A stretch of DNA of 64,000 nt, from assembly GCF_964213995.1 (NCBI RefSeq), contig NC_135826.1, forward strand, positions 1,736,001-1,800,000. Reading direction: 5' to 3'. The position numbers and the translations under genes were made by a program. This DNA is from Mustelus asterias (Eukaryota). This document shows, piece by piece, positions 655 through 58,458 of this stretch. The first letter of the stretch is position 1; the number at the start of each line of letters is the position of its first letter. The notes under the pieces were generated by a model. It did not search any database. It saw nothing but the letters and a program-made list of their open reading frames with translations, and was not told the DNA's origin.

Positions 655-905
655 CCTGTTTAGGTCAAAGTTGAGGAGGAATTTCTTCAATTAGAGGGTG
701 GATCTTTGGAATTCTCTATCCCAGAGAGCTGTGGAAGCTCGATCACTGAGCGTGTTCAAGACAGAAGTTAATGGGTTTCTGGATACTGATGACGTTAAGG
801 ATTATGGGGATAGCACGGGAAAGTGGCTTTGAGATAGATGATCAGCCATGATCTAATTGAATTGTGAAGTGGGCTACTGAATGGCCTACTCCTCTTCCAT
901 TCCCA
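655..905 (+). mobile_element. CR1-type LINE 3' fragment (old)
   Basis: Degenerate match to the 3' ends of the younger CR1 copies in this window (gaggaggaatttcttc...gaatggcctactcct). Confidence 0.6.
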
Positions 906-1060
906 AAAATAGCAGCAATAATTTGAATGATAGTGAAGAGTGACATTTTAATTTCACTTAAAATTGAGCCTGGCTTATGGCTCGGGAATGAGATGCATTT
1001 CTATGATGAATATATGTTTATTTACAACCTACAGCGACCTGATGTACTCTTTCTATACAG

Positions 1061-1152
1061 GATTTTGTAAAAGAGCAAGAGAAAATATACCAGGAAAGGG
1101 AAGATCTACTTCCTATGTACTGTGAAGAAACTTTGAAAAGATCTGGTATCGG
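1061..1152 (+). CDS. Internal coding exon of an unidentified host gene (DFVKEQEKIYQEREDLLPMYCEETLKRSGI-G), phase 0 to phase 2
   Basis: Acceptor ttctatacag| at 1060, donor |gtaaga at 1153, unique sequence, only one of three frames open. End phase matches the acceptor at 8831. Confidence 0.55.
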
Positions 1153-1169
1153 GTAAGAAGATCATTGTG

Positions 1170-1740
1170 ATTTGATTTATTATTATTGTCACGTATTAGT
1201 ATATAGTGAAGAGTATTGTTTCTTGCGTGCTATACAGACAAAGCATACCGTACTTAGAGAAGGAAAGGAGAGGGTGCAGAATCTAGTGTTACAGTCATAG
1301 CTAGGGTGTAGAGAAAGATTAACGTAATATCAGGTAGATCCATTCGAAAGCCTGATGACAGCAGGGAAGAAGCTGTTCTTGAGTCGGTTGGTACATGACC
1401 TCAGACTTCTGTATCTTTTTCCCGACAGAAGAAGGTGGAAGAGAGTATGTCCAGGGTGCGTGGGGTTCTCGATTATGCTGACTGCTTTTCCAAAATGTAG
1501 ACAGTGTCAATGGATGGGAGGCTGGTTTGTTCACGGGCTTTGTTCACGACCCTTTTATAGTTTCTTGCGGTCTTGGACAGAGCAGGAGCCATACCAAGCT
1601 GTGATACATCCAGAAAGGATGCTTTCTATGGTGCATCCGTAAAAGTTGGTGACAGCCGTAGCAGATATGCCAAATTTCCTTAGCTTCCTGAGAAAGTAGA
1701 GGCATTGGTGGGCTTTCTTAAGTATAGCTTCAGCATGGAG
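1170..1740 (-). mobile_element. Rex1/Babar-type LINE, 3' fragment
   Basis: Closely similar to 13081-13640, with the same 3' terminus (tgtgacaataataaat on the - strand). Confidence 0.7.
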
Positions 1741-1957
1741 ATAGTGATGTTCCCATATGTCTGTTGTCCTTGTCTTTCTAGATGGTAGCTGTCATAGGCT
1801 TAGAAGGTGCTGCCTATGAAGCCTTGGTGAGTTATTGCAGTGTATCTAGTACACACTACTGCATTGTTAGTTGTGTCACTCAACTTTCCAAATTATGATG
1901 GAGAAGTTATGGAGGGTTTTAAATATAAAGAGCACTCTAAAGATTTTCGCAGGGTTT

Positions 1958-2728
1958 TTTAATTCATTTATGGAATGTGGGCGTTACTGCCTAAACTAGC
2001 TTTTATTGCCAATGGTAAAAAGATTTTGTTCTTAGGGCAGTATTTGTTGGCCACCCATAATTGCCCTTGAAAAGGTAGTGGTGAGCTGCCTTCCTGAACC
2101 ACACCAGTCCAGCTCCAGGATTTTGATCCAATGACAGCAAAGGATGATATATTTTCAAGTTAGGATGGTGAGTGACTTGAAGGGGAACTTTCGGATAGTG
2201 GTGTTCCCATGTATCTGTTGCCCTTGTCCTTGTAGATGGTAGCTGTCATGGGTTTGAAAGGTGCTGCCTATGAAGCCTTGGTGAGTTGTTGCGGTGTATC
2301 TAGTACACGTTACTGCCACTGTTAGTTGGTGATGGAGGGAATAAATGTTTGTGGAAAGGGTGCCAACCAAGCGGTTGGTTTATCCTGGATGGTGTTGAGC
2401 TACTTAAGTGTTGTTGGAACTGTATTCATCCAGACAAGTGGAGAGTATTCCATCATACTTCTGACTTGTGCCTTGTAGATGGTGGACAGGCTTTGAGGAA
2501 TCGAGAAGTGGGTTACTCGCCACAGTTTTCCTAGCTTCTGACCCGCTCTTGTAGCCACAGTATTTGTATGGCTAGCCCACTTGAGTTTCTGGTCAATGAT
2601 AATCACCCAGATGTTGATAGTGGGGGATTCAGTGATGGTAATATCATTGAATGTCAAGGGGCGATAGTTAGATTTTCACTTGTTGGAGATAATTATTGCC
2701 TGGCACCTGTTTGGCAACAATGTTACTT
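1958..2728 (-). mobile_element. Degenerate LINE (L2/CR1-group) RT C-terminus plus 3' UTR
   Basis: ORF 2400-2657 reads IDQKLKW...YKAQVRSMMEYSPLVW, a non-LTR RT C-terminal pattern. Exact clade uncertain. Confidence 0.6.
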
Positions 2729-3035
2729 ATTTTATAGAATTCAATCCCCATCATACCTGACAAAAAAAATCCCAGAGTACTAATTGTCAAAAAGAATTTG
2801 ATTCATTCTCATGTCCCAATATTGTTTTCTCAGTATGTTTTACATTCATTACTTTCAACCAAAGTAACAAAACATTTGAATTTTACATTCAAATGCTTTG
2901 TTACTTTGCTTGATTCCGAGTTTGGTGTGAGCTGAATATTGTGTTGTTGTTGTCTGCTGTTTTACCAATCTTCTGTATAGATTTATAACTTACAATAAAG
3001 TCACATTCTTCTAGCCTTAAAAAAAAGAAAAAAAT

Positions 3036-3355
3036 GGGCGGCACAGTGGTTAGTACTGCTGCCTCACAGCTCCAGGGACCTGGGTTCGATTCCCGGCTTG
3101 GGTCACTGTCCGTGTGGAATTTGCACATTCTCCCTGTGTCTGTGTGGGTTTCCTCCGGGTGCTCCAGTTTCATCCCACAGTCCAAAGACATGCTGGTTAG
3201 GCGCATTGGTCATGCTAAATTGCCCCTCAATGTCCCAGGATGCATAGGTTAGAGGGATTGGTGGGGAATATGTGGGGATAGGGCCTGGGTGGGATTGTTG
3301 ACTCGATGGGCCGAATGGTCTTTTTCTGCGCTGTAGGGTTTCTATGATTCTATGT
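3036..3355 (+). mobile_element. tRNA-derived V-SINE (HE1-like) with CR1-type tail
   Basis: A-box-like ggcacagtggttag, B-box ggttcgattcc, conserved V-domain, tail gactcgatgggccgaatgg...ttctatgattctatg. Confidence 0.8.
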
Positions 3356-3624
3356 TGTTGAGCATAGCATAAGAACTAGAAGCAGGAGAACCAATAATCA
3401 GTTGAGCCTGCCCATTGAATATAATCCTGACTCATCTTGGGCTCCAACTCCACTTTCCCGCCTACTCTCCATATCCTTTGATTCACTGAGAGACCAAAGA
3501 TCTTGTCTAGCTCAGCCTAAATACAGTCAATGATGGTGCATTCTCAACCCGCTGGGGAAGGGAATTCCAAATTCACAGTACTTTGAGTGAAGTAATTTTT
3601 CCATATCTCAGTCCTAAATGATCA

Positions 3625-3922
3625 GTTTAGTTTATTTATTAGTGTCACAAGTAGGCTTACATTAACACTGCAATGAAGTTACTGTGAACATTCCCTAGTC
3701 ATCACACTCCAGCGCCTGTTTGGGTACACTGAGGAAGAATTTAGCATGGCCAATGCATCTAACCAGCATGTCTTTTGGACTGTGGGAGAAAACCAGAGCA
3801 CCCTGAGGAAACCCACGCAGACACGGGGAGAATGTACAGACTCCACACAGACAGTGTCCCAAGCTGGGAATCGAACCTGGGTCCCCGGCGCTGTGAGGCA
3901 GTAGTGCTAACCATTGTACCAC
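3625..3922 (-). mobile_element. V-SINE with alternative (non-CR1) tail
   Basis: Same head and V-domain; on the - strand it ends ...gtaagcctacttgtgacactaataaataaact. Confidence 0.75.
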
Positions 3923-4090
3923 AATCAATCCCTTATCTTGGAATTGTGCGCATTTGTTCTAGATTCCCCAGCGAGGGGAAAGTAGTGTCTTCCCATGAAG
4001 CCTCTTCATAATCTTGAATGTTACGGTAAGATCACAAGCCATTCTTCTGAATGCCAGAGAACATAGACCAGGTTGCTCAGCCTCTCATCA

Positions 4091-6733
4091 TAAGAACATA
4101 AGAAATAGGAGCAGGAGTAGGCCATCTGGCCCTTAGAGCCTGCCCCGCCATTCAACAAGATCATGGCTGATCTGAAGCGAATCAGTTCCACTTACCCGCC
4201 TGCTCCCCATATCCCCTAATTCCCTTATCGATCAGAAAACTATCTACCCGTGATTTAAACATATTCAACGAGGAAGCCTCCACCACTTCAATGGGCAGAG
4301 AATTCCAGAGATTCACTACCCTCTGAGAGAAGAAGTTCCCCCTCAACTCTGTTCTGAACCGGCCCCCCCTTATTTTGAGGCTGTGCCCTCTAGTTCTGGT
4401 TTCCCTTCTAAGTGGAAAGAATCTCTCCACCTCTACCCTATCCAGCCCCTTCATTATCTTATATGTCTCTATAAGATCACCCCTCATCCTTCTAAACTCC
4501 AACGAGTACAGACCCAATCTGTTTAATCTCTCCTCATAAGCTACACCCCTCATCTCCGGTATCAACCTGGTGAACCTTCTCTGCACTCCCTCCAAGGCCA
4601 ATATATCCTTTCGCAAATAAGGGGACCAAAACTGCACACAGTACTCCAGTTGCAGCCTCACCAGTGCCTTGTACAGTTGCAGCAAGACCTCTCTGCTTTT
4701 ATATTCTATCCCCCTCGCAATAAAGGCCAACATTCCATTCGCCTTCTTGATCACCTGCTGCACCTGCAGACTGAGTTTTTGCGATTCGTGTACAAGGACC
4801 CCCAGGTCCCTCTGCACAGTCGCATAATGTAATTTTTCTCCATTTAAATAATATTCCAATTTACTATTATTTCTTCCAAAGTGGATAACCTCACATTTGC
4901 TAATGTTATATTCCATCTGCCAGATCCTCGCCCACTCGCTCAGCCTATCCAAATCTCTCTGCAGACTTTCCGCGTCCTCCACGCAATTCGCTTTCCCACT
5001 CACCTTCGTGTCATCAGCAAACTTGAATACCCTAGATTCAGTCCCCTCCTCCAGATCATCTATGTAAATGGTAAACAATTGAGGCCCCAGCACTGATCCC
5101 TGCGGCACGCCACTGGTCACCAACTGCCAACCAGAAAAGCACCCATTTATCCCAACTCTCTGCTTCCTGTTAGATAGCCAATCCCTAATCCACGCCAACA
5201 CCTTACCCCTAACTCCGTGTACCCCAATCTTCTGCAGCAACCTTTTGTGAGGCACCTTATCGAACGCCTTCTGGAAATCTAAAAACACCACATCCACCAG
5301 TTCCCCTCTGTCAACCGCACTCGTGACATCTTCATAAAAGTCCAGTAGATTCGTCAAACACGACTTTCCCTTCATGAATCCATGCTGCGTCTGCTTGATC
5401 GAACCATTCTTATTCAGGTGCTCTGTTATTTCCTCTTTAATAATGGACTCTAGCATCTTCCCAACTACGGACGTTAAGCTAACTGGGGAGTTACCCGCCT
5501 TTTGTCTACTTCCTTTTTTAAACAGCGGCGTAACAGTAGCTGTTTTCCAGTCAGCCGGCACTACCCCAGAGTCCAGCGAATTTTGATAAATTACTACTAA
5601 CGCATCTGCTATTACCTCAGCCATTTCTTTCAGTACCCTGGGATGCATTCCATCCGGGCCCGGGGACTTGTCTACCTTCAGTCCTATTAGTCTACCAAGC
5701 ACCACCTCCTTAGTAACAGTAATTGTATTAAGGACCTCCCCTCCCACCAACTCTCGATCTCTAATATTCGGCAAACTATTTGTGTCTTCCACCGTGAAGA
5801 CCGACACAAAGAACTTATTTAAAGTCTCAGCCATTTCCTCGTTTTCCACTATTAAATCCCCCCTCTCATCTTCCAAGGGTCCAACATTCACTCTAGCCAC
5901 TCTATTCCTTTTTATATACTTGTAAAAACTTTTACTATCATTTTTTATATTTTGAGCTAGTTTAGTTTCATAATCTATCTTTCCTTTCTTAATCGCTTTC
6001 TTAGTCGTTCTTTGTTTTTCTTTAAAGCTTTCCCAATCCACTAATTCTCCACTATTTTTGGCCACTCTGTACGCATCTGATTTTATTTTAATACTCTCCT
6101 TTATTTCCTTCGTTATCCACGTCCGGTTATCCTTTTTCTTACAGTCCTTCTTTATCACCGGAATATATTTTTGCTGAGTATTTTAAAAAATCTCCTTAAA
6201 AATCCTCCACTGTTCCTCAGCTGTCCTACCTACCAGTCTGCTCGCCCAGTCTACATTAGCCAATTCCACCCTCATCCTATCGTACTCCCCTCTGTTCAAG
6301 CAGAGGACACTGGTTTGGGACCCTACTTTCTCACCCTCCATCTGTATCAGAAATTCCACCATATTATGATCACTCATCCCAAGAGGATCCTTCACAAGAA
6401 GATCCTTAATCCTACCTGTCTCATTGCACAGAACCAGATCCAAGATAGCTCGCTCCCTCGTAGGTTCTGTAACATACTGTTCAATGAAACAATCCCGACA
6501 GCATTCCAAGAACTCTTCCTCAAGCCCTCCACATCCAATTTGAGTCGACCAATCAATATGTAGGTTAAAATCCCCCATGATTATTGCCGTTCCACTTTTG
6601 CACGCATCCATTATTTGCTTGTTTATAGCCCTCCCCACCTCTAAGTTATTATTTGGGGGCCTATAGACCACGCCTACCAGTGTCTTTCTCCCCCTACTAT
6701 TCCTTATCTCCACCCACAACGATTCCACGTCAT
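4091..6733 (-). mobile_element. Young 5'-truncated CR1 LINE (family 1): partial APE endonuclease plus RT, one frameshift near 6180
   Basis: ORFs 6183-6740 (GVVYRPP, GDFN, SDH) and 4182-6158 (LDFQKAFD, GVPQGSVLGP, FADD); 3' (ttcttatg)n terminus. Confidence 0.92.
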
Positions 6734-6840
6734 GGGACAACTCTCCTATCCTGAAGATCGATCTTGTGCAGAACGATAGATCATGTGGTGTGCAGCATCA
6801 GATTTATTGATTATTAATGTAATTATTAAATTATTATTTA

Positions 6841-7420
6841 GAACATAGAACATTACAGTGCAGTACAGGCCCTTCGGCCCTCGATGTTGCGCCGACCAGT
6901 GAAACCAATCTAAAGCCCCTCTAATCTACACTATTCCAATATCATCCATATGTTTATCCAATAACCATTTGAATGCTCTTAATGTTGACGAGTCCACTAC
7001 TGCTGCAGGCAGGGCATTCCACGCCCTTACTACTCTCTGAGTAAAGAACCTACCTCTAACATCTGTCCTATATTTCTCACCCCTCAATTTAAAGCTATGT
7101 CCCCTCGTGTTAGCCATCACCATCCGAAGAAAAAGGCTCTCCCTATCCACTCTATCTAATCCTCTGATCATCTTGTATGCCTCTATTAAGTCACCTCTTA
7201 ACCTTCTTCTCTCTAACGAAAACAACCTCAAGTCCCTCAGCCTTTGCTCATACGATTTTCCCACCATACCAGGCAACATCCTGGTAAATATCCTCTGCAC
7301 CCTTTCCAACACTTCCACATCTTTCCTATAATGCGGCGACCAGAACTGTACGCAATACTCCAAGTGCAGCTGCACCAGAGTTTTGTACAGTTGCAGCATG
7401 ACCTCCTGGCTCCGAAACTC
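6841..7420 (-). mobile_element. CR1 LINE 3' fragment (family 2)
   Basis: ORF 6926-7399 EYCVQFWSP...RRRLRGDLIE; near-identical to 57890-58445. Confidence 0.88.
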
Positions 7421-8831
7421 AGTGACTCAAGTCACTTTGGATAAGTCACTCAAGAAACTTAGTGACTCAAGTTCCATTTTTATTTATTTAATTATATTTT
7501 GTTCCTTTGTAGATGTGGGTGTCATTGGCTAGGCCAGAATTTATTGCCCATCCCTAAATTATATTCTGGAATTTTACAGATACTTCGGGGATTGGATTCC
7601 ATAGCCATCTTTTGATCTAAAACTGTAGCCACACTCCGATTAAATCTGGTTAGCGAGTAAACGATAATTGAACCAGGATGTATAGACATAATTTGGTCCT
7701 CATTTTAAAGTAATCATGCCATTGTTTAATATAATATGATTTTATATTTATTCTTTGATCTGAAATTATTGTGGAAAGGGAATATTGGATTTGGCAGTAC
7801 TGGGCTGGTTGAATGTGGGATTTGACTCACTGGTTTATTTTCTCAGAGAGGCAGAGAGTATAGACCTGGCAACAATGTGTATGGATATTCCATAAATGGC
7901 AGCACTGGTTTGGTATTCTTTCTGTGATTTTTGTAAGCATTAAATTTGATGTTTTGTGTTTTTCTTCTGGAAGTATTCAGCGTCCATTCTCTCTCTCTTG
8001 TGCTTCTCTCTCTCCGTCACCCCTCTTTTGTGGTTGCCTCTCTTTCTCCATTCATCCCTCTATTTATTTGTCTATTTTGTCTCTCTCATCTTTTGTTTTC
8101 TTTCTTTTGGCAGTTAAAATATTTTTTACATTTTCTAACAAGATCATTATTAGTAGCTTCCAAAATTCAGTCTTCCTTCTTTGTACCAAAGATTCTTGCC
8201 TCTTACCATTCATTGAAACGTAAAAGTATGCACAAGATATTTAATTAGCTAATAGGGAGGCATCTTTTTAATGATACAAGACTAGAATCTGCAGAACAAC
8301 AGCAGCCAGAAAAGGCATGATGCAAGGGACAGGCAACATTGCACCATAGTACTGATTTACAGACTGTAGGTTGTGTGCAACTTTCCACATAGCTTCACCT
8401 TTTATTGCAACGGAAATTGGGTTGCCTTGCCTGTGAGTAATGCAATGAAGCCTCCCTGTTGTTGGAACTTGGAGAAATCAAAGTAGTAAGTAAAATGAAT
8501 TATTAAGCGTATCTGCAACAGCAGTTTAACCAAGTAAATATGAAGCTTGCAGTAATTGCATATTATGTATGAAAATTTTCATATAAATAAATACATTAAG
8601 CTTGAATAGAATAAATACACCACCATTGTTCCAGTTAGTGTATTACAGCCAAATACTGGCAAAGAAAGGATACTGCGCCAAAGTTAGGAATTGTCTTGAT
8701 TTGAGCCTTGACAGTATGCCAATGAAGCCTGTTCAATCTTTGGTTATGAGGTTTCAAGTTAAATGTGTGTCTCCAACAACATTTGCCCCTTCCCCACACC
8801 AGTATTGATTTGTTCCTTTTATTTTGAGCAG

Positions 8832-10224
8832 ATACAGCCGAGGTTCAAGCAGTAACCCTAGCTGGGAGATGGAAGGATTTCCTGATCATTCTTCACGGAG
8901 GATGCTGGGAGTAGATCTGCCACTAGGTACAGCTGTCAAAAGGAGCCTGAAAAGTTTACACAGGATTGAACTAGCAGAGGCGCAGAGGACTGACCCTTCA
9001 TTGGAAGCTGTGCGATATCAGGCCATGCATCCCTGCAACAAAACAGATGGTGACATGGGGGGTACGTTCCTATACAAGGAAGGGATTTTGATTCGGCGAT
9101 GGAGTCCAAAGGAAGGCTTTTTCAAGGGGTCAGAAGTGTTTGAGGAGGTAGTAGTCCCTGAGCTATGTCGTGATGAAATATTGAAGGTTGCTCACAACAT
9201 TCCATCCTCTGAACACCAAGGCATTAAGCGTACAGGACGCCGTGTGCTGCAATATTTCTACTGGCCATCAGTTTTCACGGATGTAGCACATTATTGTAAA
9301 GCGTGTGAAAAATGTCATTATTCACATAAACTGGGAGATGCAGCCAATCTGGGGTTACGCCCCCTACCCACAATAAATATACCATTTAAAAGAGTAAGCA
9401 TCGATGTAGTGGGACCACTACCCTTCACAACCAACTCTGGGAAAAGGTACATCCTGATGATGGTGGATTGTGCATCCAGATATCCTGACGCGACAGCACT
9501 TGTCTCAGTGGAAGCAGATATAGTCGCCATGGCCCTGCTAGTGATGTTTACACGAGTCGGGTTTCCAGAAGAGATCCTGTCCAATCAGGGTGAAAATTTC
9601 ATGTCGCAGTTGGTTATGCAACTGAAAAGACAATGCCAAGACAAACAGCTCCGCAGCAACTCGTACTGTCCCCAAGTAAATGAGCTAGTGGAGAAGTTCA
9701 ATGGGACATTGAAACAAATACTGCGTACCTACGCTGAGCAGAACCCCTGTGACTGGGATGAAAAGCTGCCGTATCTTCTCTTTGCCTGTAGGGAGGTGCC
9801 GCAGCAATTAACTGGGTTCTCTCCCTTTGAGCTTCTATATGGACGCCGGGTATATGGGACATTGCTTCTGATCAAGGAGGCTTGGTTAGGGAAATGTTTT
9901 GGTGCAGATAAAAACATAGTGGAGCATGTGCTGAATGCACGGGATGCCTTAATTAGTTTAATTGAAAGTATTCGGGAAGATCAGGACCACTCTCTAAATA
10001 GCCGAAATCTCTGGTACTGTCATAATGCTGGGACCCGGTCATACGACATAGGCCAAAGGGTGCTGGTACTACAGCCTGTGAAACGACAAAAAGTGCAGCT
10101 TCATTGGGAAGGTCCATATACTGTAGTTGAGCCAGGGAAATACGTGTATTACACGGTTGAAATACCGTTTAATAAATTTAAAATTTACCATGTTAACATG
10201 ATGAAGCCTTACCTCGATTCCTAG
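8832..10224 (+). CDS. Gypsy/Gmr1-like integrase-derived terminal exon (HHCC zinc finger, rve core with D-N-35-E, GPY/F module); putative domesticated gene
   Basis: Uninterrupted ORF: AHNIPSSEHQG...CKACEKC, SIDVVGP (D 9403), EILSNQG (N 9583), LVEKFN (E 9691), TGFSPFELLYGR, WEGPY, HVNMMKPY then stop. Pyrimidine tract plus cag| at 8831. No RT follows. Confidence 0.8.
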
Positions 10225-10571
10225 GTGGTTATTGTGGTAGAGTAAAAGTTTGATTTTTAGTTTGTTTCCTTTAGAGATTATATTGGTTCCATGATTTAAT
10301 TAGAATTATTTCTCTGAAAAAAAAGAAAAATTTTAAGACCCAGAACTAGTACAACACAACTGACTGGTGTTCGGTAATGTGTGAAATGCTGATATCACAT
10401 TATAGATATCCTGTATATTCACCCTTTTACTTTGTGGGACCCTTCTCCTATCTAAAGTATGCATGAGGTTTTATCAAGGAAAACAATAAACCAAAGAATT
10501 CCCAGAGAAGAGTGCTTGACAGATGAGGGTCTAAAAGCAGAGTGGAAGGAACAGGAATTTTTTGGTAACTT

Positions 10572-10886
10572 GCACGGTGGCACAGTGGTTAGCACTGCGG
10601 CCTCACAGCTCCAGAGACCTGGGTTCGATTCGTGGTTTGGGTCTCTGTCTGTGTGGAGTTTGTACGTTCTCCTCGTGTCTACGTGGGTTTCCTCCGGGTG
10701 CTCCGGTTTTCTCCCACAGTCCAAAGACTTGCGGGTTAGGTTGATAGGCCATGCTAAATTGCCCCTTTGTGTCCCGAGGATACGTAGGTTAGAGGGATTA
10801 GCGATGTAAATATGTGGGGTTACAGGGATAGGTTGGACTATTGTCGGTGCAGACTCGATGGGCCGAATGTAGGAATTCTATGATTC
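10572..10886 (+). mobile_element. V-SINE (HE1-like) with CR1-type tail
   Basis: Same head, V-domain and tail as 3036-3355. Confidence 0.8.
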
Positions 10887-11762
10887 ATAAGATTGTCAAC
10901 TTCTCATCAATTGCTTGTATCTGAAGGAGATGATGACTTGAGCAGAATAACAAAAAGGGCCGAATTTACCATGAATGATAAAAACTATTAATTGCCAGAG
11001 ACTCTTCAATTAAACCAGAAGGATAATTAACTAATTACAAACTTTCTCAATGTATATTTATTTGTATAATTAAATATATATGTACTTTTCATATCTGCTG
11101 AGTATTGTGCTTCATATTGCTGTTTACTGCTGTTTAATAAAGTGATTAGTTGTTTTAGTCTGTAAACATCTGGTCCGCATGGTAATATCCACTGTTCAGA
11201 GAGGATTAGCTAGCACTGAGAGAAGTTCACGGCAGGTTATTGCAAGAAAGGTCCTTGGTTAAGGAATATCAGATTAGAATAGGAAAGGGCATTGTTCTGA
11301 GATTATAAGGCCCTCTTACAAGAACGTCTGTTGACTTGAAAGAGACGAAGTTTATCAAAAACTAAGTCTCTGATAATTTGGGACAGCAATGGAAATCTGT
11401 GAACCCAGTGGCTCAAGTAGAAAGAAAGCTGGGTAGCAAAAAGGAGAAGCAGACGCAAGTGTCAGAATAATAACAGCTTGCATACAACATCTTTAATGTA
11501 AAAAAAAAGGTGCTTCGTAAAGACATAAGTGGTGAGGGGAATAGAAGTTTATCCAAAAATTGGACAGTCTTAAAGAGGAAAAGGTGAATGATCTCAAGGA
11601 AGGAAATGCAGAGCCACGGCAGCAAAAAGCACAGCCAAACAGTAGTAAAGCAAAGAGGGATGTTGCACAGGAAATCAGAGAGAGGACCTTGGAGGTTTGG
11701 GAAGATTTACAGAGACTGGAAAGAGAGGCAGAGAGGTTTTACACACAAGGCTGTTAATTGTA

Positions 11763-11860
11763 GTAAAAACAGAAACTGCTGGAAATGCACAACAGGTCTG
11801 ATAGCATCTGTGGAGAGATCAACAGGGTTGATATTTCTGGTCGATGACCTTTTGTCAGAG
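11763..11860 (-). mobile_element. Fragment of family B Penelope-like repeat
   Basis: Degenerate match to the arms at 20074-20170 and 34103-34170. Confidence 0.5.
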
Positions 11861-11974
11861 TTAGGGAAATTGAAATAGCCTGATGCCATGCTGGCAGTTT
11901 GCAATGAAAAAGCCTAGAGAGGGTAAGAAGCCAGAAAGTGCTTGTAGTTACATTTGTAATTCATGAAAGGTAGA

Positions 11975-12360
11975 TGAGGCCTTGGTTTAGCATCTCATCT
12001 GAAAGATGGCTTCCAACTGCAGCATTTCCTCAGCACTGTACTGAGAATGTCAGTCTTAATTTTGTATAGTAAGAAGCCTCACAACACCAGGTTAAAGTCC
12101 AACAGGTTTACTTGGTATCACACGCTTTCGGAGCACTGCTCCTTCATTAGGTGACTCACCTAATGAAGGAGCAGCGCTCCGAAAGCTTGTGATATCAAAT
12201 AAAACTGTTGGACTTTAACCTGGTGTTGTGAGGCTTCTTACTGTGCCCACCCCAGTCCAACGCCAGCATCTCCACATCTTGACTTTATATGGAAGTCTCT
12301 GGATTAAGACTTGAACCCACAACCTTCTGATTCTAAGGCAAGTGCACTACCACTAGCCAC
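11975..12360 (-). mobile_element. DeuSINE (SacSINE1-like) 5' part, interrupted by a Penelope-type palindrome
   Basis: The - strand reads gtggctagtggtagtgcac...agaaggttgtgggttcaagtc...cagtacagtgctgagg...tcagatgagatgctaaaccaaggc, recognised from memory as tRNA head plus Deu-domain start. Confidence 0.6.
12069..12278. mobile_element. Family A Penelope-type fold-back insertion (about 85 bp arms plus tail)
   Basis: Inverted arms centred near 12155; tail ctgtgcccaccccagtccaacgccagcatctccacat; same termini as the element at 15661. Confidence 0.85.
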
Positions 12361-15959: not shown

Positions 15960-16863
15960 TTACTGATAATGTGACATAAATCCAACATCCCGGTTTAGAC
16001 CGTCCTCATGTGTGCGGAACTTGGCTATCAGTTTCTGCTCAGTGACTCTGCGCTGTCGTGTGTCGTGAAGGCCGCCTTGGAGAACGCTTACCTGAAGATC
16101 CAAGGCTGAATGCCCGTGACTGCTGAAGTGCTCCCCCACAGGAAGAGAACACTCTTGCCTGGTGATTGTCGAGCGGTGTTCATTCATCCGCTGTCGTAGC
16201 GTCTGCATGGTTTCCCCAATGTACCATGCCTTGGGACATCCTTTCTTGCAGCGTATCAGGTAGACAACGTTGGCCGAGTTGCAAGAGTATGTACCGTGTA
16301 CCTGGTGGATGGTGTTCTCACGTGAGATGATGGCATCCGTGTTGATGATCCGGCACGTCTTGCAGAGGTTGCTGTGGCAGGGTTGTGTGGTGTCGTGGTC
16401 ACTGTTCTCCTGAAGGCTGGGTAGTTTGCTGCGGACAATGGTCTGTTTGAGGTTGCGTGGTTGTTTGAAGGCAAGAAGTGGGGGTGTGGGGATGGCCTTG
16501 GCGAGATGTTCGTCTTCATCAATGACATGTTGAAGGCTCCAGAGGAGATGCCGTAGCTTCTCCGCTCCGGGGAAGTACTGGACGACGAAGGGTACTCTGT
16601 CCACCGTGTCCCGTGTTTGTCTTCTGAGGAGGTCGGTGCGGTTTTTCGCTGTGGCACGTCGGAACTGTTGATCGATGAGTCGAGCGCCATATCCTGTTCT
16701 TATGAGGGCATCTTTCAGCGTCTGGAGGTGTCTGTTGCGATCCTCCTCATCCGAGCAGATCCTGTGTATTCGGAGGGCTTGTCCGTAGGGGATGGCTTCT
16801 TTTACGTGTTTAGGGTGGAAGCTGGAGAAGTGGAGCATCATGAGGTTATCCGTGGGCTTGCGG
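15960..16863 (-). CDS. Penelope-like RT thumb, linker and GIY-YIG endonuclease (5'-truncated)
   Basis: RKPTD..LHFSSFHP..IPYGQALRIHRICS; PCHSNLCKTC; NVVYLIRC...YIGET..LRQRMNEH; GLNRD. Confidence 0.88.
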
Positions 16864-17210
16864 ATCTTCAGGTAAGCGTTCTCCAAGGCGGCCTTCACGA
16901 CACACGACAGCGCAGAGTCACTGAGCAGAAACTGATAGCCAAGTTCCGCACACATGAGGACGGTCTAAACCGGGATGTTGGATTTATGTCACATTATCAG
17001 TAACCCCCACAGCTTGACTCCTGGACTTGCACAATTTCACAAGCTGTACTGTCTGGAGACAATACACATCTCTTTAACCTGTGTTGAATGCTCCCTCCAC
17101 CCACATTGTCTGTGCATTTAAGACTTGGCTGGCTGTAGAGATTTGCATTCTAATCAGTATTCTGTAATTTGATTTCTGTGTCTGTGCCCTGTTTGAGAAC
17201 AGAGACCACT

Positions 17211-20865: not shown

Positions 20866-23800
20866 GAACCATAGACCATAGAAAATTACAGCTCAGAAAC
20901 AGGCGTTTTGGCCCTTCTTGTCTGTGCCGAACCATTTTATGCCTAGTCTCACTGACCTGCACTTGGACCATATCCCTCTACACCCCTCTCATCCATGAAC
21001 CCGTCCAAGTTTTTCTTAAATGTTAAAAGTGACCCCGCATTTACCACTTTATCCGGCAGCTCATTCCACACTCCCACCACTCTCTGCGTGAAGAAGCCCC
21101 CCCTAATATTCCCTTTAAACTTTTCTCCTTTCACCCTTAACCCATGCCCTCTGGTTTTTTTCTCCCCTAGCCTCAGCGGAAAAAGCCTGCTTGCATTCAC
21201 TCTATCTATACCCATCAAAATCTTATACACCTCTATCAAATCTCCCCTCAATCTTCTACGTTCCAGGGAATAAAGTCCCAACCTATTCAATCTCTCTCTG
21301 TAACTCAGCTTCTCAAGTCCCGGCAACATCCTTGTGAACCTTCTCTGCACTCTTTCAATCTTATTTACATCCTTCCTGTAACTAGGTGACCAAAACTCCA
21401 AATTCGGCCTCACCAATGCCTTATATAACCTTACCATAACACTCCAACTTTTATACTCGATACTCCGATTTATAAAGGCCAATGTACCAAAGGCACTCTT
21501 TACAACCCTATCCACCTGTGACGTCACTTTTAGGGAATTCTGTACCTCTATTCCCAGATCCCTCTGTTCAACTGCACTCTTCAGAGTCCTACCATTTACC
21601 CTGTACGTTCTTCTTTGGTTTGTCCTTCCAAAGTGCAATATAAGAACATAAGAAATAGGAGCAGGAGTAGGCCATCTAGCCCCTCGAGCCTGCCCCGCCA
21701 TTCAATAAGATCATGGCTGATCTGACGTGGATCAGTACCACTTACCCGCCTGATCCCCATAACCCTTAATTCCCTTACCGATCAGGAATCCATCCATCCG
21801 CGCTTTAAACATATTCAGCGAGGTAGCCTCCACCACCTCAGTGGGCAGAGAATTCCAGAGATTCACCACCCTCTGGGAGAAGAAGTTCCTCCTCAACTCT
21901 GTCTTAAACCGACCCCCCTTTATTTTGAGGCTGTGTCCTCTAGTTTTAACTTTCTTACTAAGTGGAAAGAATCTCTCCGCCTCCACCCTATCCAGCCCCC
22001 GCATTATCTTATAAGTCTCCATAAGATCCCCCCTCATCCTTCTAAACTCCAATGAGTACAAACCCAATCTCCTCAGCCTCTCCTCATAATCCAAACCCCT
22101 CATCTCCGGTATCAACCTGGTGAACCTTCTCTGCACTCCCTCCAATGCCAATATATCCTTCCTCATATAAGGGGACCAATACTGCACACAGTATTCCAGC
22201 TGCGGCCTCACCAATGCCCTGTACAGGTGCATCAAGACATCCCTGCTTTTATATTCTATCCCCCTCGCAATATAGGCCAACATCCCATTTGCCTTCTTGA
22301 TCACCTGTTGTACCTGCAGACTGGGCTTTTGCGTCTCATGCACAAGGACCCCCAGGTCCCTTTGCACGGTAGCTCACACTTGTCTGCGTTAAATTCCATT
22401 TGCCATTTTTCAGCCCATTTTTCTAGTTGGTCCAAATCCCTCTGCAAGCTTTGAAAACCTTCCTCACTGTCCACTACACCTCCAATCTTTGTATCATCAG
22501 CAAACTTGCTGATCCAATTGACCACATTATCATCCAGATCATTGATATAGATGACAAACAACAATGGACCCAACACCGATCCCTGCGGCACACCACTAGT
22601 CACAGGCCTCCACTCAGAGAAGCAATCCTCCACAACCACTCTCTGGCTTCTTCCATTGAGCCAGTGTCTAATCCAATTTACTACCTCCCCATGTATACCT
22701 AGCGACTGAACCTTCCTAACTAACCTCCCATGAGGGACCTTGTCAAAGGCCTTGCTGAAATCCAGGTAGACAACATCCACCGCCTTCCCTTCATCCACTT
22801 TCCTGGTAACCTCCTCGAAAAACTCTAATAGATTGGTCAAACATGACCTACCACGCACAAAGCCATGTTGACTCTCCCTAATAAGTCCCTGTCTGTCCAA
22901 ATATTTGTAGATCCTATCCCTTATCACACCTTCCAATAACTTGCCCACCACCGACGTCAAACTTACTGGCCGATAATTTCCCGGATTTCTTTTGGAACCT
23001 TTTTTAAACAACGGAACAACATGAGCCACCCTCCAATCATCCGGCACCTCCCCCGTGAATACTGACATTTTAAATATGTCTGCCAGGGCCCCTGCAAGTT
23101 CAATACTAGCTTCCCTCAAGGTCCGTGGGAATACCCTGTCCGGTCCTGGGGATTTATCCACTCTGATTTGCCTCAAGACAGCAAGCACCTCCCCTTTAAT
23201 CTGTAAAGGTTCCATGGCCACCCAACCAGTTTGCCCTATTTCCGTAGACTCCATGCCCGTTTCCTCAGTAAATACTGATGCAAAAAAACCATTTAGTATC
23301 TCCCCCATCTCTTTTGGTTCCATACACAGTCTACCACTCTGGTCTTCAAGAGGACCAATTTTATCCCTCACTATCCTTTTGCTCCTAACATACCTATAGA
23401 AGCTCTTTGGATTTTCCTTCACTCTGTCTGCCAAAGCAACCTCATGTCTTCTTTTAGCCCTCCTGATTTCCCTCTTAAGTAGCTTCTTGCACTTTTTATA
23501 CTCCTCGAGCATCTGATGTGTTCCTTGCTGCCTGTACATTTCATACAACTCTCTCTTCCTCTTAATCAGTGTTACAATCTCCCTCGAGAACCAAGGTTCC
23601 TTATTCCTATTTACTTTGCCTTTAATTCTGACAGGAACATACAAACTCTGCACTCTCAAAATTTCTCCTTTGAAGGCCTCCCACTTTCCATTTACATCCT
23701 TACCAGAGAACAGCCTGTGCCAATCCACACTTCCCAGATCCCTTCTCATTTCATCAAATTTGGCCTTTTTCCAGTTCAGAACTTCAACCCGAGGACCAGA

Positions 23801-24010
23801 TCTATCCTTATCCACGATCAGGTTGAAACTAATGGCATTATGATCACTGGATCCAAAGTGTTCCCTCACACTCGCATCCATCACCTGCCCTAACTCATTT
23901 CCTAATAGGAGATCCAATATCGCATCCTCTCTAGTTGGCACCTCTATATACTGATGTAGAAAATTCTCCTGAACATATTTTACAAACTCTGCCCGGTCTA
24001 AACCTTTAAC
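20866..24010 (-). mobile_element. CR1 LINE (family 4) ORF2, split into 22373-24010 and 20866-21640
   Basis: ORF 22301-23941 (EN end plus RT to FNADKCE) continues ILHFGRTN at 21640. Confidence 0.9.
21641..22372 (-). mobile_element. CR1 LINE (family 1) 3' fragment nested in the family 4 copy
   Basis: ORF 21732-22367; 3' end taagaacataagaaataggagcagg identical to that at 4091. Confidence 0.9.
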
Positions 24011-24689
24011 GTGACCTTAGCGTGACGTAGGATGAGAGGAGATTTAATAGAGGTATATAAGATGTTGAGAGGCATAGATCGGGTGCACTCTCATAGGCTT
24101 TTTCCCAGGGTGGAAATGGCTGCTACGAGAGGACACAGGTTTAAGGTGCTAGGGGGTAAGTACAGGGGAAATGTTAGGGGGAAGTTTTTCACACAGAGGG
24201 TGGTGGGCAAGTGGAATCGGCTGCCGTCAGTGGTGGTGGAGGCAAACTCAATAGGGTCTTTTAAGAGACTCCTGGATGAGTACATGGGACTTAATAGGAT
24301 GGAGGGTTATAGGTAGGCCTAAAAGGTAGGGATATGTTTGGCACAACTTGTGGGGCCGAAGGGCCTGCTTTGTGCTGTAGTTTTTCTATGTTTCTAAAGG
24401 CAGGTAATTTTGTTTTATGACTGTGTGTAATTGGGGCTCACCTGCTGAGCTTGACTTCATCCACAACTTGGAAATCAGTAGATGCTGCTTTCATCTTCCT
24501 TTTAAACCATGACTACAACAAACTGGGTGCCTGTAGCACAAGCTGTGGTAAGGCTGAGCAAGGAGGCACAACCAGTGGGGAGGGGCGAGAGGGTGGCAGG
24601 ACCTTGGGGAGAAAATCCAGAGGGGAAGGATGAAAGAATGTCCAGGCCATGTTGGAAGGCTCTGAATGACGGGCATGTATTAGTCCCAG

Positions 24690-33179: not shown

Positions 33180-33430
33180 GAGGCAGTAGTGTCATGGTAT
33201 TGTCACTGGACCAGTAATCCAAAGGAACAGACTAATGCTCTGGGCACATGGGGTTTAAATCCCACCATGGAAACTGGTGGAATTTAAATTCAAATCTGGA
33301 ATTGTCTTCCTAATAATGGCCATGAAACCATTGTTGATTGTTGTAAAAACCCATCTAGTTCACTTACTTGGTCTGGCCGAGATGTGACTCCAGACCCACA
33401 GCAATATGGTTGACTCTGAAATGGCTGAGC
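33180..33430 (+). mobile_element. tRNA-related SINE family 2
   Basis: Similar to 25870-26225. Confidence 0.6.
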
Positions 33431-34171
33431 AAGCTACACAGTTACTTCAAACCACTCTAGAAAGGAATGGAACAGAACAGACAACCCAGGCACTGGAAAT
33501 GATAACAGCACACTCAACAATCCCATCCAAGCCCTATCCCCGTAAACCCACCTATTTACCCTACTAATCTCCCGAACATTAAGGAGCAATTTAGTATAGC
33601 CAATCAACCTAACCCACACATTTGTGGACATGAAGATGGCATGCCAGGAGCAAACCAGGCATACCTAAAAATTAGGAGTCAAGCTGGTGAAACTACAACA
33701 CAGGAGTATTTGTGTGCCAAACACCATAAGTAGCAAGCAATAAACACAGCTAAGCAATTCCACAATGAATGGTTCAGATCTAAACTCCTCAGTCATGCCA
33801 CATCCAGCCGTGAATGATGGTGGAAAATTAAACAATTCACTGGAGGAGGAGGCTCTACTAATATCCCCCTCAATGGTGGAGGAGCCCAGCACAAAGAGCC
33901 CACCACAAAAAAGATAAGGCTGATTACAAAGTGTGTGGGGGTGGGGGAGAGGGATGCTGATTACAATGCGTGTGGAGGAGGACTGATTACTGTGTGTGGG
34001 ACAGGGGTTGATTATAGTGTGTTGTGGGAGGGGGGGCTGATTACAGTGTGCATTATGGTTGGTGAGGGAGTTCACTGATCCTGCCACCCATACACTTGGA
34101 GACCAAAAGAGAAAATGCTGGAAAATCTCAACAGGTCTGGCAGCATCTGTAAGGAGAGAAAAGAGCTGATT

Positions 34172-34212
34172 GAGCTTTGACAAAGGGTCATCTGGACTCG
34201 AAACGTCAGCTC
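34172..34212 (+). ncRNA. Minimal type I hammerhead motif with U3-A8 variant core
   Basis: gagct-TTGACAA-a-gggtc-atctg-gactc-GAAAC-GTC-agctc. Confidence 0.7.
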
Positions 34213-34636
34213 TTTTCTCTCCTTACAGATGCTGCCAGACCTGCTGAGATTTTCCAGCATTTTCTCTTGGAAAACAGTTGATGTTTCGAGTCCAGCGGAC
34301 CCTTTGTCAAAGCTGTTTTTTTAACTGTAGGGTGAGGGAATGAAAGATGAGTCGTAGCCACAAAACCAAGGGGAAAGCCTGCGACAGATGAAGATATGGG
34401 GGAGGAGGGGTGGGGGAGAGAGGGGGGGGGGAGATGGGGGTGGGGGAGAGAGGGGGGGGAGATGGGTGTGGGGGAGAGAGGTAAAATTTAGAAAAGGGGG
34501 AAAGAGTGGGGGAAAAGAAAAATAAAGAAAAACAATAAAAGGTAGGGAACAGCTAAAAATTAAATAAAATGAAAACAAAGGGGTCAGGGTGGGGTAGAGC
34601 TAATTATCTGAAGTTCTTGAATTCGATGTGGAGACC

Positions 34637-56477: not shown

Positions 56478-57623
56478 TCAGGGAAGGTGTCAGAGGACTG
56501 GAAAAAGGCTAATGTAACACCCCTGTTTAAGAAGGGAAGGAGGGAGAAGATGGGAAATTATAGGCCAATTAGCCTGACCTTGGTTGTGGATAAGATCTTG
56601 GACTCCATTATTAAGGATGAAATTGCGGAGTGCTTGGAATTGCATGGTAAAATAGGGCTGAGCCAGCATGGCTTCGTCAAAGGGAGGTCATGTCTGGCAA
56701 ATCTGTTACAAATTTTTTGAGGTAACAAAGGAGTTAGAAAAGGATAGCCAGTGGACTTGATTTATTTGGATTTCCAGAAAGCCTTTGACAAGGTGCCTTA
56801 CAGAAGGCTGCTAAATAAGCTTAGACGCAAGGTACTGGTATGGATAGAAGATTGGGTGACAGACAGAAGGGAGAGTGTGGGGATAAGGGGGTTCTTTTCA
56901 GGATGGCCACCGGTGACTAATGATGTTCCACAGGGGTCAATGTTGGGGCCACAACTTTTCACTATATGCATTAATGATCTGGACGATGGAACTGAGGGCA
57001 TGGTTGCTAAATTTGCGGATTGTACAAAGATATGTAGAGGAAGTGGGCAGGCTACAGGTTTGGAGAGTGAGCAAAGAAGTGGTAGATGAAATACAATGTG
57101 GGAAAGTGAGAGGTTATGCACTTTGGTCGGAAGAATAGAGCGTAGACTATTTTCTAAATGGGGAAAGGTTTCAAAAATCTGAAGCACAAAAGGGCTTGGG
57201 AGCCCTGGTTCAGGACACTCAAGATTAACGTGCAGGTTCAGTTGGCAGTTAGGGAGGCAAATTCAGTGTTAGCATTCATTTCTCAAGGGCTAGATTACAA
57301 GAACAGGGGTGTACTGCTGAGGCTGTATACGGCTCTGGTCAGACCCCATTTGGAGTATTGTGAGCAGTTTTGGACCCCATATCTAAGGAAGGATGTGTTT
57401 CCCCTGGAGGGGGTCCAGAGGAGGTTCAGGAATGAAGGGTTTGTCATATGAGGAGCGGTTGAGGAGTCTGGATCTATACTTGATGGAGTTTAGAAGGAGG
57501 AGGGGGGTCTTACAGAATACTGAGAGACCTAGATAGAGTGGACGTGGAGAGGACGTTTCCACTAGTGAGAGAGACCAGAACTCAAGAACACAACCTCAAC
57601 TTCAGAGTGAAGGGACGTTCCTT

Positions 57624-58446
57624 GGGTGGCAGATGGAGTTTAATGCAAATGGTGGCAAATGGAGTTTAATGTGGAAAAGTGTGAGGTGATTCACTTTGGA
57701 AGGAGTAACAGGAATACAGAGTACTGGGCTAATGGTAAGATACTTGCTAGTGTGGATGAACAGAGGGATCTGGGTGTCCATGTGCATAGGTCCCTGAAAG
57801 TTGGCACCCAGGTTGATAGGGTTGTTAAGAAGGCGTACGGTGTGTTAGCTTTTATTGGTAGAGGGATTGAGTTTCGGAGCCAGGAGGTCATGTTGCAACT
57901 GTACAAAACTCTGGCGTGGCCGCATTTGCAGTATTGCGTACAGTTCTGGTCGCCATATTATAGGAAAGATGTGGAAGTGTTGGAAAGGGTGCAGAGGAGA
58001 TTTACCAGGATGTTGCCTGGTATGGTGGGAAAATCGTATGAGGAAAGGCTGAGGGGCTTGAGGTTGTTTTCGTTAGAGAGAAGAAGGTTAAGAGGTGACT
58101 TAATAGAGGCATACAAGATGATCAGAGGATTAGATAGGGTGGATAGTGAGAGCCTTTTTCCTCGGATGGTGTTGGCTAGCACAAGGGGACATAGCTTTAA
58201 ATTGAGGGGTGAGAGATATAGGACAGATGTTGGAGGTAGGTTCTTTACTCAGAGTAGTAAGGGCGTGGAATGCCCTGCCTGCAGCAGTAGTGGACTCGTC
58301 AACATTAAGAGCATTCAAATGGTTATTGGATAAACATATGGATGATATTGGAATAGTGTAGATTAGAGGGGCTTTAGATTGGTTTCACAGGTCGGCGCAA
58401 CATCGAGGGCCGAAGGGCCTGTACTGCGCTGTAATGTTCTATGTTC
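57624..58446 (+). mobile_element. CR1 LINE (family 2) 3' fragment
   Basis: ORF 57659-58333; gttcctt on both sides. Confidence 0.88.
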
Positions 58447-58458
58447 CTTTAAAACTGG

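Follow-up and report, generated by a model that had tools for sequence, protein, structure and literature searches.

The shark Mustelus asterias carries a gene whose exons derive from the SAFB family and whose 3' terminal exon contains the integrase of a long terminal repeat (LTR) retrotransposon, which we regard with high confidence as a domesticated one. The window, by which we mean the whole stretch of DNA that was analysed, is the 64,000 nt of the forward strand at positions 1,736,001-1,800,000 of contig NC_135826.1 (assembly GCF_964213995.1). All coordinates are counted within it unless stated otherwise, negative values and values above 64000 designating the same contig outside the window. 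A preliminary description, made from the letters of the window, had proposed an integrase of the Gmr1 type spliced onto a host gene as its last exon; a 16-exon gene model and the presence of the gene in 10 sharks bear out this proposal.

Results

Organization of the fusion gene

The fusion gene is composed of 16 exons spread over 89 kb of the plus strand. Its exon chain runs from -78860 to 10221 with AG/GT borders throughout, and its translation is identical to the RefSeq protein XP_078054186.1 (1243 aa). Exons 1-14 (-78860 to -10329) lie upstream of the window, and the initial ATG is located in a CpG island (GC 0.72, observed/expected ratio 1.21) resembling that of SAFB itself; five CpG-island-like stretches are found in 264 kb, one at this ATG and another at the start of SAFB. 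Exon 15 (1061-1152) is a 92-nt exon with ag/...gg/gtaag borders, which opens in phase 0 and closes in phase 2. It is followed by a GT...AG intron of phase 2 (1153-8831), filled with pieces of long and short interspersed nuclear elements (LINEs and SINEs) and ending with a pyrimidine tract and acceptor at 8808-8831 (cag/a at 8829-8832). The last exon corresponds to the open frame 8809-10224, which is 471 codons long between stops, 463 of them lying past the acceptor. The preliminary description had joined exon 1061-1152 to the acceptor at 8831 in phase 2, exactly as in XP_078054186.1. It had rightly found the frame free of stops, at a length of 466 codons that has to be corrected, and had placed its end right after HVNMMKPY, a motif which is indeed terminal and is followed by three further residues (HVNMMKPYLDS). 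Behind the stop, AATAAA motifs occur at 10485-10490, a candidate signal, and at 11136 and 12198; the first two were already on record, and the surrounding DNA, described as AT-rich, is not unusually so (GC 0.39-0.42). A SINE-like repeat (10576-10880) lies between the first and second motifs and may fall in the 3' untranslated region.

Three stretches succeed each other in exon 16: a SAFB-derived start (8832-8916, YSRG...MEGFPDHS...GVD), a host/element junction zone (8917-8955) and the integrase-derived part (8956-10224, about 420 codons plus TAG), which is present as a single copy in the genome. The latter contains a zinc-binding domain of the His-His-Cys-Cys (HHCC) type (9154-9318; His at 9193 and 9214, Cys at 9304 and 9313), a catalytic core (9382-9693; Asp at 9403, Asn at 9583 and Glu at 9691, the last two with a spacing of 35) and a C-terminal SH3-like (GPY) domain (10078-10212). 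The terminal-exon join is identical in the eight shark fusion proteins compared, and two annotation pipelines give the same splice junction in Scyliorhinus torazame.

The host part is a SAFB paralogue

The host exons upstream of the integrase match the canonical SAFB gene, the parent family of this part, which is found on the same strand about 25 kb downstream of the fusion gene; its 5' half occupies 35500-64000 and the gene goes on to 87610. SAFB had been noted as a neighbour, which it is; the relation goes further, the host being itself a SAFB paralogue. Exon 1061-1152, previously described as unique, does not come from an unrelated gene; it is the second copy of a SAFB-type exon rich in Glu and Arg (E/R) and belongs to a coiled-coil exon pair that is both present and doubled in the fusion gene. 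Two other paralogues, named here SAFB-L1 and SAFB-L2, complete the picture. SAFB-L1, which the same contig carries about 0.5 Mb further upstream (1069596-1165876 in contig coordinates), encodes about 750 aa with SAP, RRM, Arg/Ser (RS) and E/R parts, and is present in sharks, rays and Callorhinchus. SAFB-L2 was seen in Heptranchias and Pristiophorus, where it has the doubled E/R exons in common with the fusion and where its models are without integrase; it was not found in the Mustelus asterias genome in a stricter first look. Cartilaginous fish have a SAFB cluster made of SAFB, SAFB-L1, SAFB-L2 and the fusion gene, on which our literature search found no paper.

The domain content of the fusion protein differs among sharks. 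That of Heptranchias retains SAP (E=1e-6) and RRM (E=8e-8) domains, which were undetected in the seven other proteins of the eight, that of Mustelus asterias included; the second RRM exon could not be clearly traced in its expected intron. The RS/SR dipeptides number 27-64 in the fusion proteins versus 13 in a shark SAFB. The coding exon 10 (-27697 to -27141, 557 nt) consists of SSERR repeats in tandem, the copies of which vary from 2 to 16 among sharks with the maximum in Mustelus asterias.

Host-part trees were built twice, once as a quick tree and once as a careful LG+G4 tree of 25 rows. The fusion proteins form one clade (100/100) whose sister is SAFB-L2 (92/94), and the two together fall outside the clade of shark plus ray SAFB-L1 (100/100). 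A shark-only grouping, named after the first tree had been viewed, was rejected (p-AU 0.0005, approximately unbiased test). This topology and this rejection make it likely that the host duplicate predates the split between sharks and rays.

From the acceptor onwards, exon 16 matches over its first 28 codons, in register, the phase-2 SAFB exon 82084-82202 and its SAFB-L1 counterpart, Heptranchias YSRDWNSDPSWKTEGFPDHSWQG standing opposite SAFB-L1 FNRDWNTGHSRKMDGFHDRSWQG. Similarity to element polyproteins begins about 13 codons past this SAFB-derived part and extends to HVNMMKPY. In the junction zone, a GT at 8927-8928 occupies the position of the SAFB-L1 donor, which is suggestive only. Because the start of exon 16 is in register with the SAFB exon and its acceptor, it argues for the read-through of an existing exon and not for exonisation via a new acceptor. 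An acceptor created by the element was rejected as an origin, since SAFB's own phase-2 acceptor precedes the 28 SAFB-derived codons, as was an independent start at the ATG at 8869, the sole early Met, in place of which Heptranchias and Pristiophorus have Thr or Val. No remnant of the last two SAFB exons was recognized in 10225-35400 beyond Gly-rich noise (E>=0.039).

Origin and motifs of the integrase

The integrase gives clear Pfam matches to Integrase_H2C2 (E=2e-14) and rve (E=1e-7), in agreement with the HHCC and rve modules first announced; the GPY/F module announced with them corresponds to weak C-terminal matches to SH3_Tf2-1 and p58_C (E=0.018 and 0.052). An AlphaFold model built from 80 sequences displays three domains (predicted local distance difference test, pLDDT, 77; predicted template modelling score, pTM, 0.79), the C-terminal one being beta-rich, and its best structural matches are the integrases of prototype foamy virus (PFV) and Ty3 (E 1e-17 to 1e-13). 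The ESM Atlas gave no usable match.

When the 3.68-Gb genome was searched with the integrase DNA, the sole match was the integrase itself. At the protein level, among the best 92 of 20,430 candidates, the integrase found itself at 100% and other sequences at 26-37% identity, the best 19 of which all contain stops. The absence of many near-identical copies is thereby confirmed, as is that of any recognizable reverse transcriptase (RT), protease or LTR pair: when seven full Gmr1-type polyproteins were compared with window positions 1-36000, the integrase was matched and all else remained at E>=0.06, and no LTR-like direct-repeat pair surrounds the open frame within 900-12000. The nearest integrase family of the genome itself is old and mostly broken; it carries an HPQxQG loop, forms a separate clade (99) and is 30-35% identical to the fusion integrase. 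Intact Gypsy-type frames are also present in this genome.

The closest sequences belong to turtle and frog elements, which are 42-48% identical along about 410 residues. A quick tree of 43 rows with SH-aLRT supports, containing neither the named Gmr1 reference nor GIN1/2, groups the shark integrases in a clade (100) that is sister to these elements (99). The sister elements have a SCAN domain and/or an integrase upstream of the RT, as detected by Pfam in 5 of 7 sister rows or full-length proteins; in the elements scanned, RT and RNase H come after the integrase, and most of these elements also have SCAN. The order integrase before RT is the hallmark of Gmr1, and the placement upholds the Gmr1-like origin proposed at the outset. 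In frogs, SCAN was reported solely in Gmr elements (PMC4131045).

The Asp-to-Asn change noted in the preliminary description (AAT at 9583, with exact D(35)E spacing) is fixed: the second Asp is Asn in 8/8 sharks, and it is Asp in 24/24 elements. The HHCC residues, the first Asp, the Glu and the spacing of 35 are retained in all seven aligned sharks, and positions E+1 and E+7 are still basic. In the loop before the Glu, His and Gly are altered in six of these seven sharks. The reading of YCPQVNE as a degenerate YHPQxDG describes a lineage-specific change, since Heptranchias retains YHPQVNG and since the closest elements carry N, not D, at the D position of the loop. Among the near-invariant columns of the elements, 77/101 are preserved in all sharks, and about two thirds of the 28 conserved basic columns remain Lys or Arg. 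The second Asp is thus altered in every shark compared, and catalysis itself, to judge from the motif, has probably been lost.

Distribution and conservation among sharks

A search of longer proteins gave 67 matches; the top eight are shark proteins of 1053-1323 aa, from Mustelus asterias (100% identity), Carcharodon (95), two Scyliorhinus (89), Chiloscyllium (87), Stegostoma (86), Heptranchias (83) and Pristiophorus (74), the subsequent matches being at <=48%. These eight clusters represent 34 models of 10 shark species, named 'uncharacterized' or 'SAFB-like'. Among the matches listed, and for annotated proteins, the fusion is seen in 10 of 13 shark species, in none of nine batoids and not in the single chimaera; such counts make absence weak evidence. 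The gene, which had been supposed to be specific to cartilaginous fish, was thus seen in sharks only and not in cartilaginous fish at large. No fused protein was among the matches listed for Heterodontus, Rhincodon, Hemiscyllium, the nine batoids and Callorhinchus, all of which have SAFB-family proteins. A search among proteins of near length (254-811 aa) gave 99 matches, none named as shark, the best having 47% identity over 90% of the query, so that no stand-alone annotated form of the shark integrase was seen in this size range. A metagenome scan for orthologous DNA gave 18 pattern matches, none of which was confirmed. The expected synteny with SAFB was found in Chiloscyllium punctatum, in which SAFB and the fusion bear the consecutive locus tags chiPu_0012120 and chiPu_0012121 on one contig; in eight other species, the fusion and SAFB-family proteins come from contigs of identical size.

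Among the 10 sharks, 274 of the 418 integrase columns are invariant, the core being the best conserved part (128/162), and the alignment gaps affect four columns, in frame. At least 196 amino-acid changes have accumulated among the shark integrases and not one stop, while 1000 neutral runs, in which substitutions were introduced to the observed divergence and indels ignored, yielded a mean of 10.9 stops and not a single stop-free frame. Between Mustelus and Heptranchias, identity reaches 86% in the integrase, 60% in the host part and 81% in SAFB-L1, and SAFB stands at 89-92% in comparable pairs; the integrase is under stronger constraint than the remainder of the fusion protein. A long open frame is not by itself rare locally, LINE frames of 571-666 codons being present nearby, and the integrase frame exceeds chance because it is conserved across species and not because it is long. 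Judged at the protein level, the integrase is under purifying selection, as had been suspected.

Other features around the locus

On the minus strand, 15960-17003 is a GIY-YIG frame that we take to be Penelope-like, and an inverted copy of its end is present on the plus strand. LINE pieces, presumably of the CR1 type, occupy 4182-7426, 20949-24016 and 56798-60980, and their open frames of up to 666 codons suggest young copies. Just past SAFB, at about 90961-96700, three long plus-strand frames (432, 437 and 767 codons), one of them RT/RNase H-like, are probably those of an LTR element. At 33400-34500, the plus strand reads TQLSNSTMNGSDLNSSVMPHPAVNDGGKLNNSLEEEALLISPSMVEEPSTKSPPQKR, which is exon-like.

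Discussion

History of the capture

In the simplest history, an element would have been inserted just behind an existing SAFB exon, which was then read through into it in frame. SAFB would have been duplicated in cartilaginous fish, giving SAFB-L1 first and then, before the shark-ray split, the lineage of SAFB-L2 and the fusion. An LTR element with its integrase ahead of RT would have been inserted where a late exon of this last paralogue has its 3' end; the donor of the exon would have been abandoned, the frame continuing into the integrase, and a stop would have arisen directly past the SH3 domain. What remained of the element would then have been lost, together with the two final exons of SAFB. 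On the sequences compared, the capture is older than the split of the two shark superorders, which took place about 250-300 million years ago.

A model for the function of the fusion protein

The model we propose, on which we are almost evenly divided with a slight lean towards doubt, is that the dead integrase stands in for SAP and RRM by anchoring an RS/ER scaffold to nucleic acids or chromatin. The product would act as a nuclear scaffold. Its zinc-bound and probably oligomeric integrase would dock on DNA, RNA or nucleosomes without cutting them, and the expanded RS repeat and the doubled E/R coiled coil would recruit RNA-processing partners of the heterogeneous nuclear ribonucleoprotein (hnRNP) or SR type to the docked sites. 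The outcome would be a rewired SAFB role on transposon-rich transcripts and chromatin. Indeed, SAFB proteins bind LINE-1 (L1) RNA, prevent transposon exonisation and repress LTR elements and endogenous retroviruses (ERVs) in mice and flies, and the E/R C terminus of SAFB1 is required for partner binding and splicing rescue (PMC10901741). Furthermore, the D116N integrase of HIV-1 (human immunodeficiency virus type 1) is devoid of catalysis and yet complements RNA-binding defects (PMC9601147). It is also conceivable, if doubtful, that a SAFB-family suppressor captured the integrase of the very type of element that it polices and abandoned its SAP and RRM domains, the dead integrase now finding LTR-derived DNA or RNA. 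The fusion protein would then be a shark-wide integrase-guided silencing or splicing factor dating back to the most recent ancestor that living sharks share, a proposal which we likewise consider unlikely.

Several observations weigh against the anchor model and the gene structure that underlies it. About one third of the 28 conserved basic columns have been lost, the isoelectric point (pI) is 8.0-9.1 versus 9.1-10.0 in the elements, and the loop preceding the Glu has drifted; taken together, these features fit a weaker binding of nucleic acids. The splice junction 1152/8832 is supported by gene models, and among the 34 models at least 3 terminate ahead of the integrase exon (8 tails inspected), models short of the integrase being those of Heptranchias and Chiloscyllium punctatum. 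The lack of the fusion in Heterodontus, Rhincodon and Hemiscyllium may reflect a loss or an annotation gap, and the orthologue survey, which relies on annotated proteins, is biased towards intact frames.

The lowered pI and the missing basic columns are also what would be expected of an integrase that has become a pure oligomerisation or protein-binding module, multimerising the RS/ER scaffold, for instance in nuclear condensates, with no contact to nucleic acids. The core being the best conserved part of the integrase accords with this view, as does the regulatory role of the integrase-like HHCC finger of ZBTB11 (PMC12062965); we nevertheless hold it to be unlikely, since the three domains have all been retained, together with the first Asp, the Glu and the basic positions E+1 and E+7, and since the scaffold, deprived of its other nucleic-acid-binding domains, would be left without an anchor. 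That a single active-site change has occurred in a preserved fold would equally suit a restriction factor against LTR retrotransposons, in which the dead integrase would bind cDNA ends or poison integrase multimers while the SAFB part silences. The repression of L1 and LTR/ERV elements by SAFB in mammals and flies (PMC10901741) and the like role proposed for CGIN1/NYNRIN (PMC3424704) speak for it, and the genome does contain intact Gypsy-type frames. This reading is nonetheless rather improbable, because no close donor family was found in the genome (the best relatives, among the best 92 of 20,430 candidates, are 33-37% identical, mostly stopped and of another clade), because conservation is high and steady, unlike that of an arms-race gene, and because the loop before the Glu has drifted in 6/7 sharks. 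In active integrases, this loop touches the DNA ends of the element. The restriction-type protein of the preliminary description accordingly finds little support.

The invariance of the first Asp, the Glu and the spacing of 35 in 7/7 sharks might mean that some nuclease or strand-transfer activity, residual or altered, survives at the D,N,E site and is of use to the host, for example in DNA repair. We regard this as very improbable: the second Asp is invariant in all 24 elements, the equivalent change inactivates HIV-1 integrase (PMC9601147), and six sharks of seven show changes at the His and Gly of the neighbouring loop. As the junction is that of gene models and as models without integrase exist in Heptranchias and Chiloscyllium punctatum, the integrase frame could also be a separate conserved gene or a minor exon, mis-joined to the SAFB paralogue by the predictors; this is most improbable for an exon that opens with 28 SAFB-derived codons in register with the SAFB phase-2 acceptor, that is joined identically in all eight proteins, whose sole early Met (8869) is not conserved and downstream of which there are no further SAFB terminal exons. 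Finally, a recent or neutral retrotransposon fossil, open by chance like the long LINE frames nearby, is scarcely credible for a single-copy sequence which 10 shark species have at one locus and which none of the 1000 neutral runs kept free of stops at the observed divergence; a recent insertion was rejected on this conservation across species at one locus.

Comparison with known systems

Our literature search found no description of a SAFB-integrase fusion, most subscription papers and survey supplements being outside its scope. The closest precedent for the shark gene is NYNRIN (CGIN1) of therians, in which a duplicate of KHNYN/KIAA0323 is joined to a Ty3/Gypsy pol segment with the integrase in C-terminal position (PMC9447858, PMC3424704). 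Both are duplicates of a host gene fused at their C terminus to the integrase of an LTR element. They are set apart, by description, by their host (SAFB and not KHNYN), by the captured part (the integrase alone, no RNase H), by their presence in sharks and by an independent origin; no Pfam match to KH-like, NYN or RNase H domains was obtained in the eight shark fusion proteins, and identity with NYNRIN was rejected since host, captured part and lineage all differ.

GIN1/2, KRBA2, SCAND3 and NYNRIN are listed as domesticated integrase-like genes in PMC3670739, the available excerpts of which make no mention of sharks and place GIN1, GIN2, SCAND3 and KRBA2 under Gmr1. GIN2, which derives from GIN DNA transposons and is present in the elephant shark, has eight coding exons between OGFOD2 and ABCB9 (PMC3424704), and identity with it was rejected on account of these exons and of this other locus. 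Unlike GIN1 and GIN2, from which it is set apart by description, the shark integrase is contained in one exon fused to SAFB exons and lies beside SAFB; SCAND3 and KRBA2, likewise set apart by description, are therian. CSB-PGBD3 and SETMAR are also fusions of host and element, PGBD3 being used as an alternative 3' terminal exon, but these involve transposases of DNA transposons, whereas the shark gene took a whole three-domain integrase by extension of a host exon. ZBTB11 differs by having an integrase-like HHCC finger alone (PMC12062965).

With the Gmr1-type Ty3/Gypsy elements of turtles and frogs, the shark gene shares the order of HHCC, core and SH3 domains; it differs from them by the lack of Gag/SCAN, protease, RT, RNase H and LTRs, by its single copy, by its Asn and by its inclusion in a 16-exon gene. 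With SAFB1, SAFB2 and SLTM, it shares homologous exons, an acidic N terminus and the E/R coiled coil, to which Heptranchias adds retained SAP and RRM domains; it differs by the exchange of the Gly-rich tail for an integrase, by the loss of SAP and RRM in seven of eight proteins, by the expansion of RS and by the doubling of E/R. The duplication in sharks is independent of that which gave SAFB1 and SAFB2 in mammals.

In conclusion, domestications of a whole integrase are few, and those described, GIN2 apart, are in amniotes or mammals; the shark fusion adds one that is independent, old and found in sharks alone. Recent work has shown that SAFB defends somatic cells against transposon exonisation, which lends special point to a SAFB copy on which such an exon has been fixed. 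The shark series furthermore catches a domain replacement in progress, Heptranchias having SAP and RRM in addition to the integrase and the other sharks the integrase alone, which makes the takeover of nucleic-acid targeting by a dead integrase testable.

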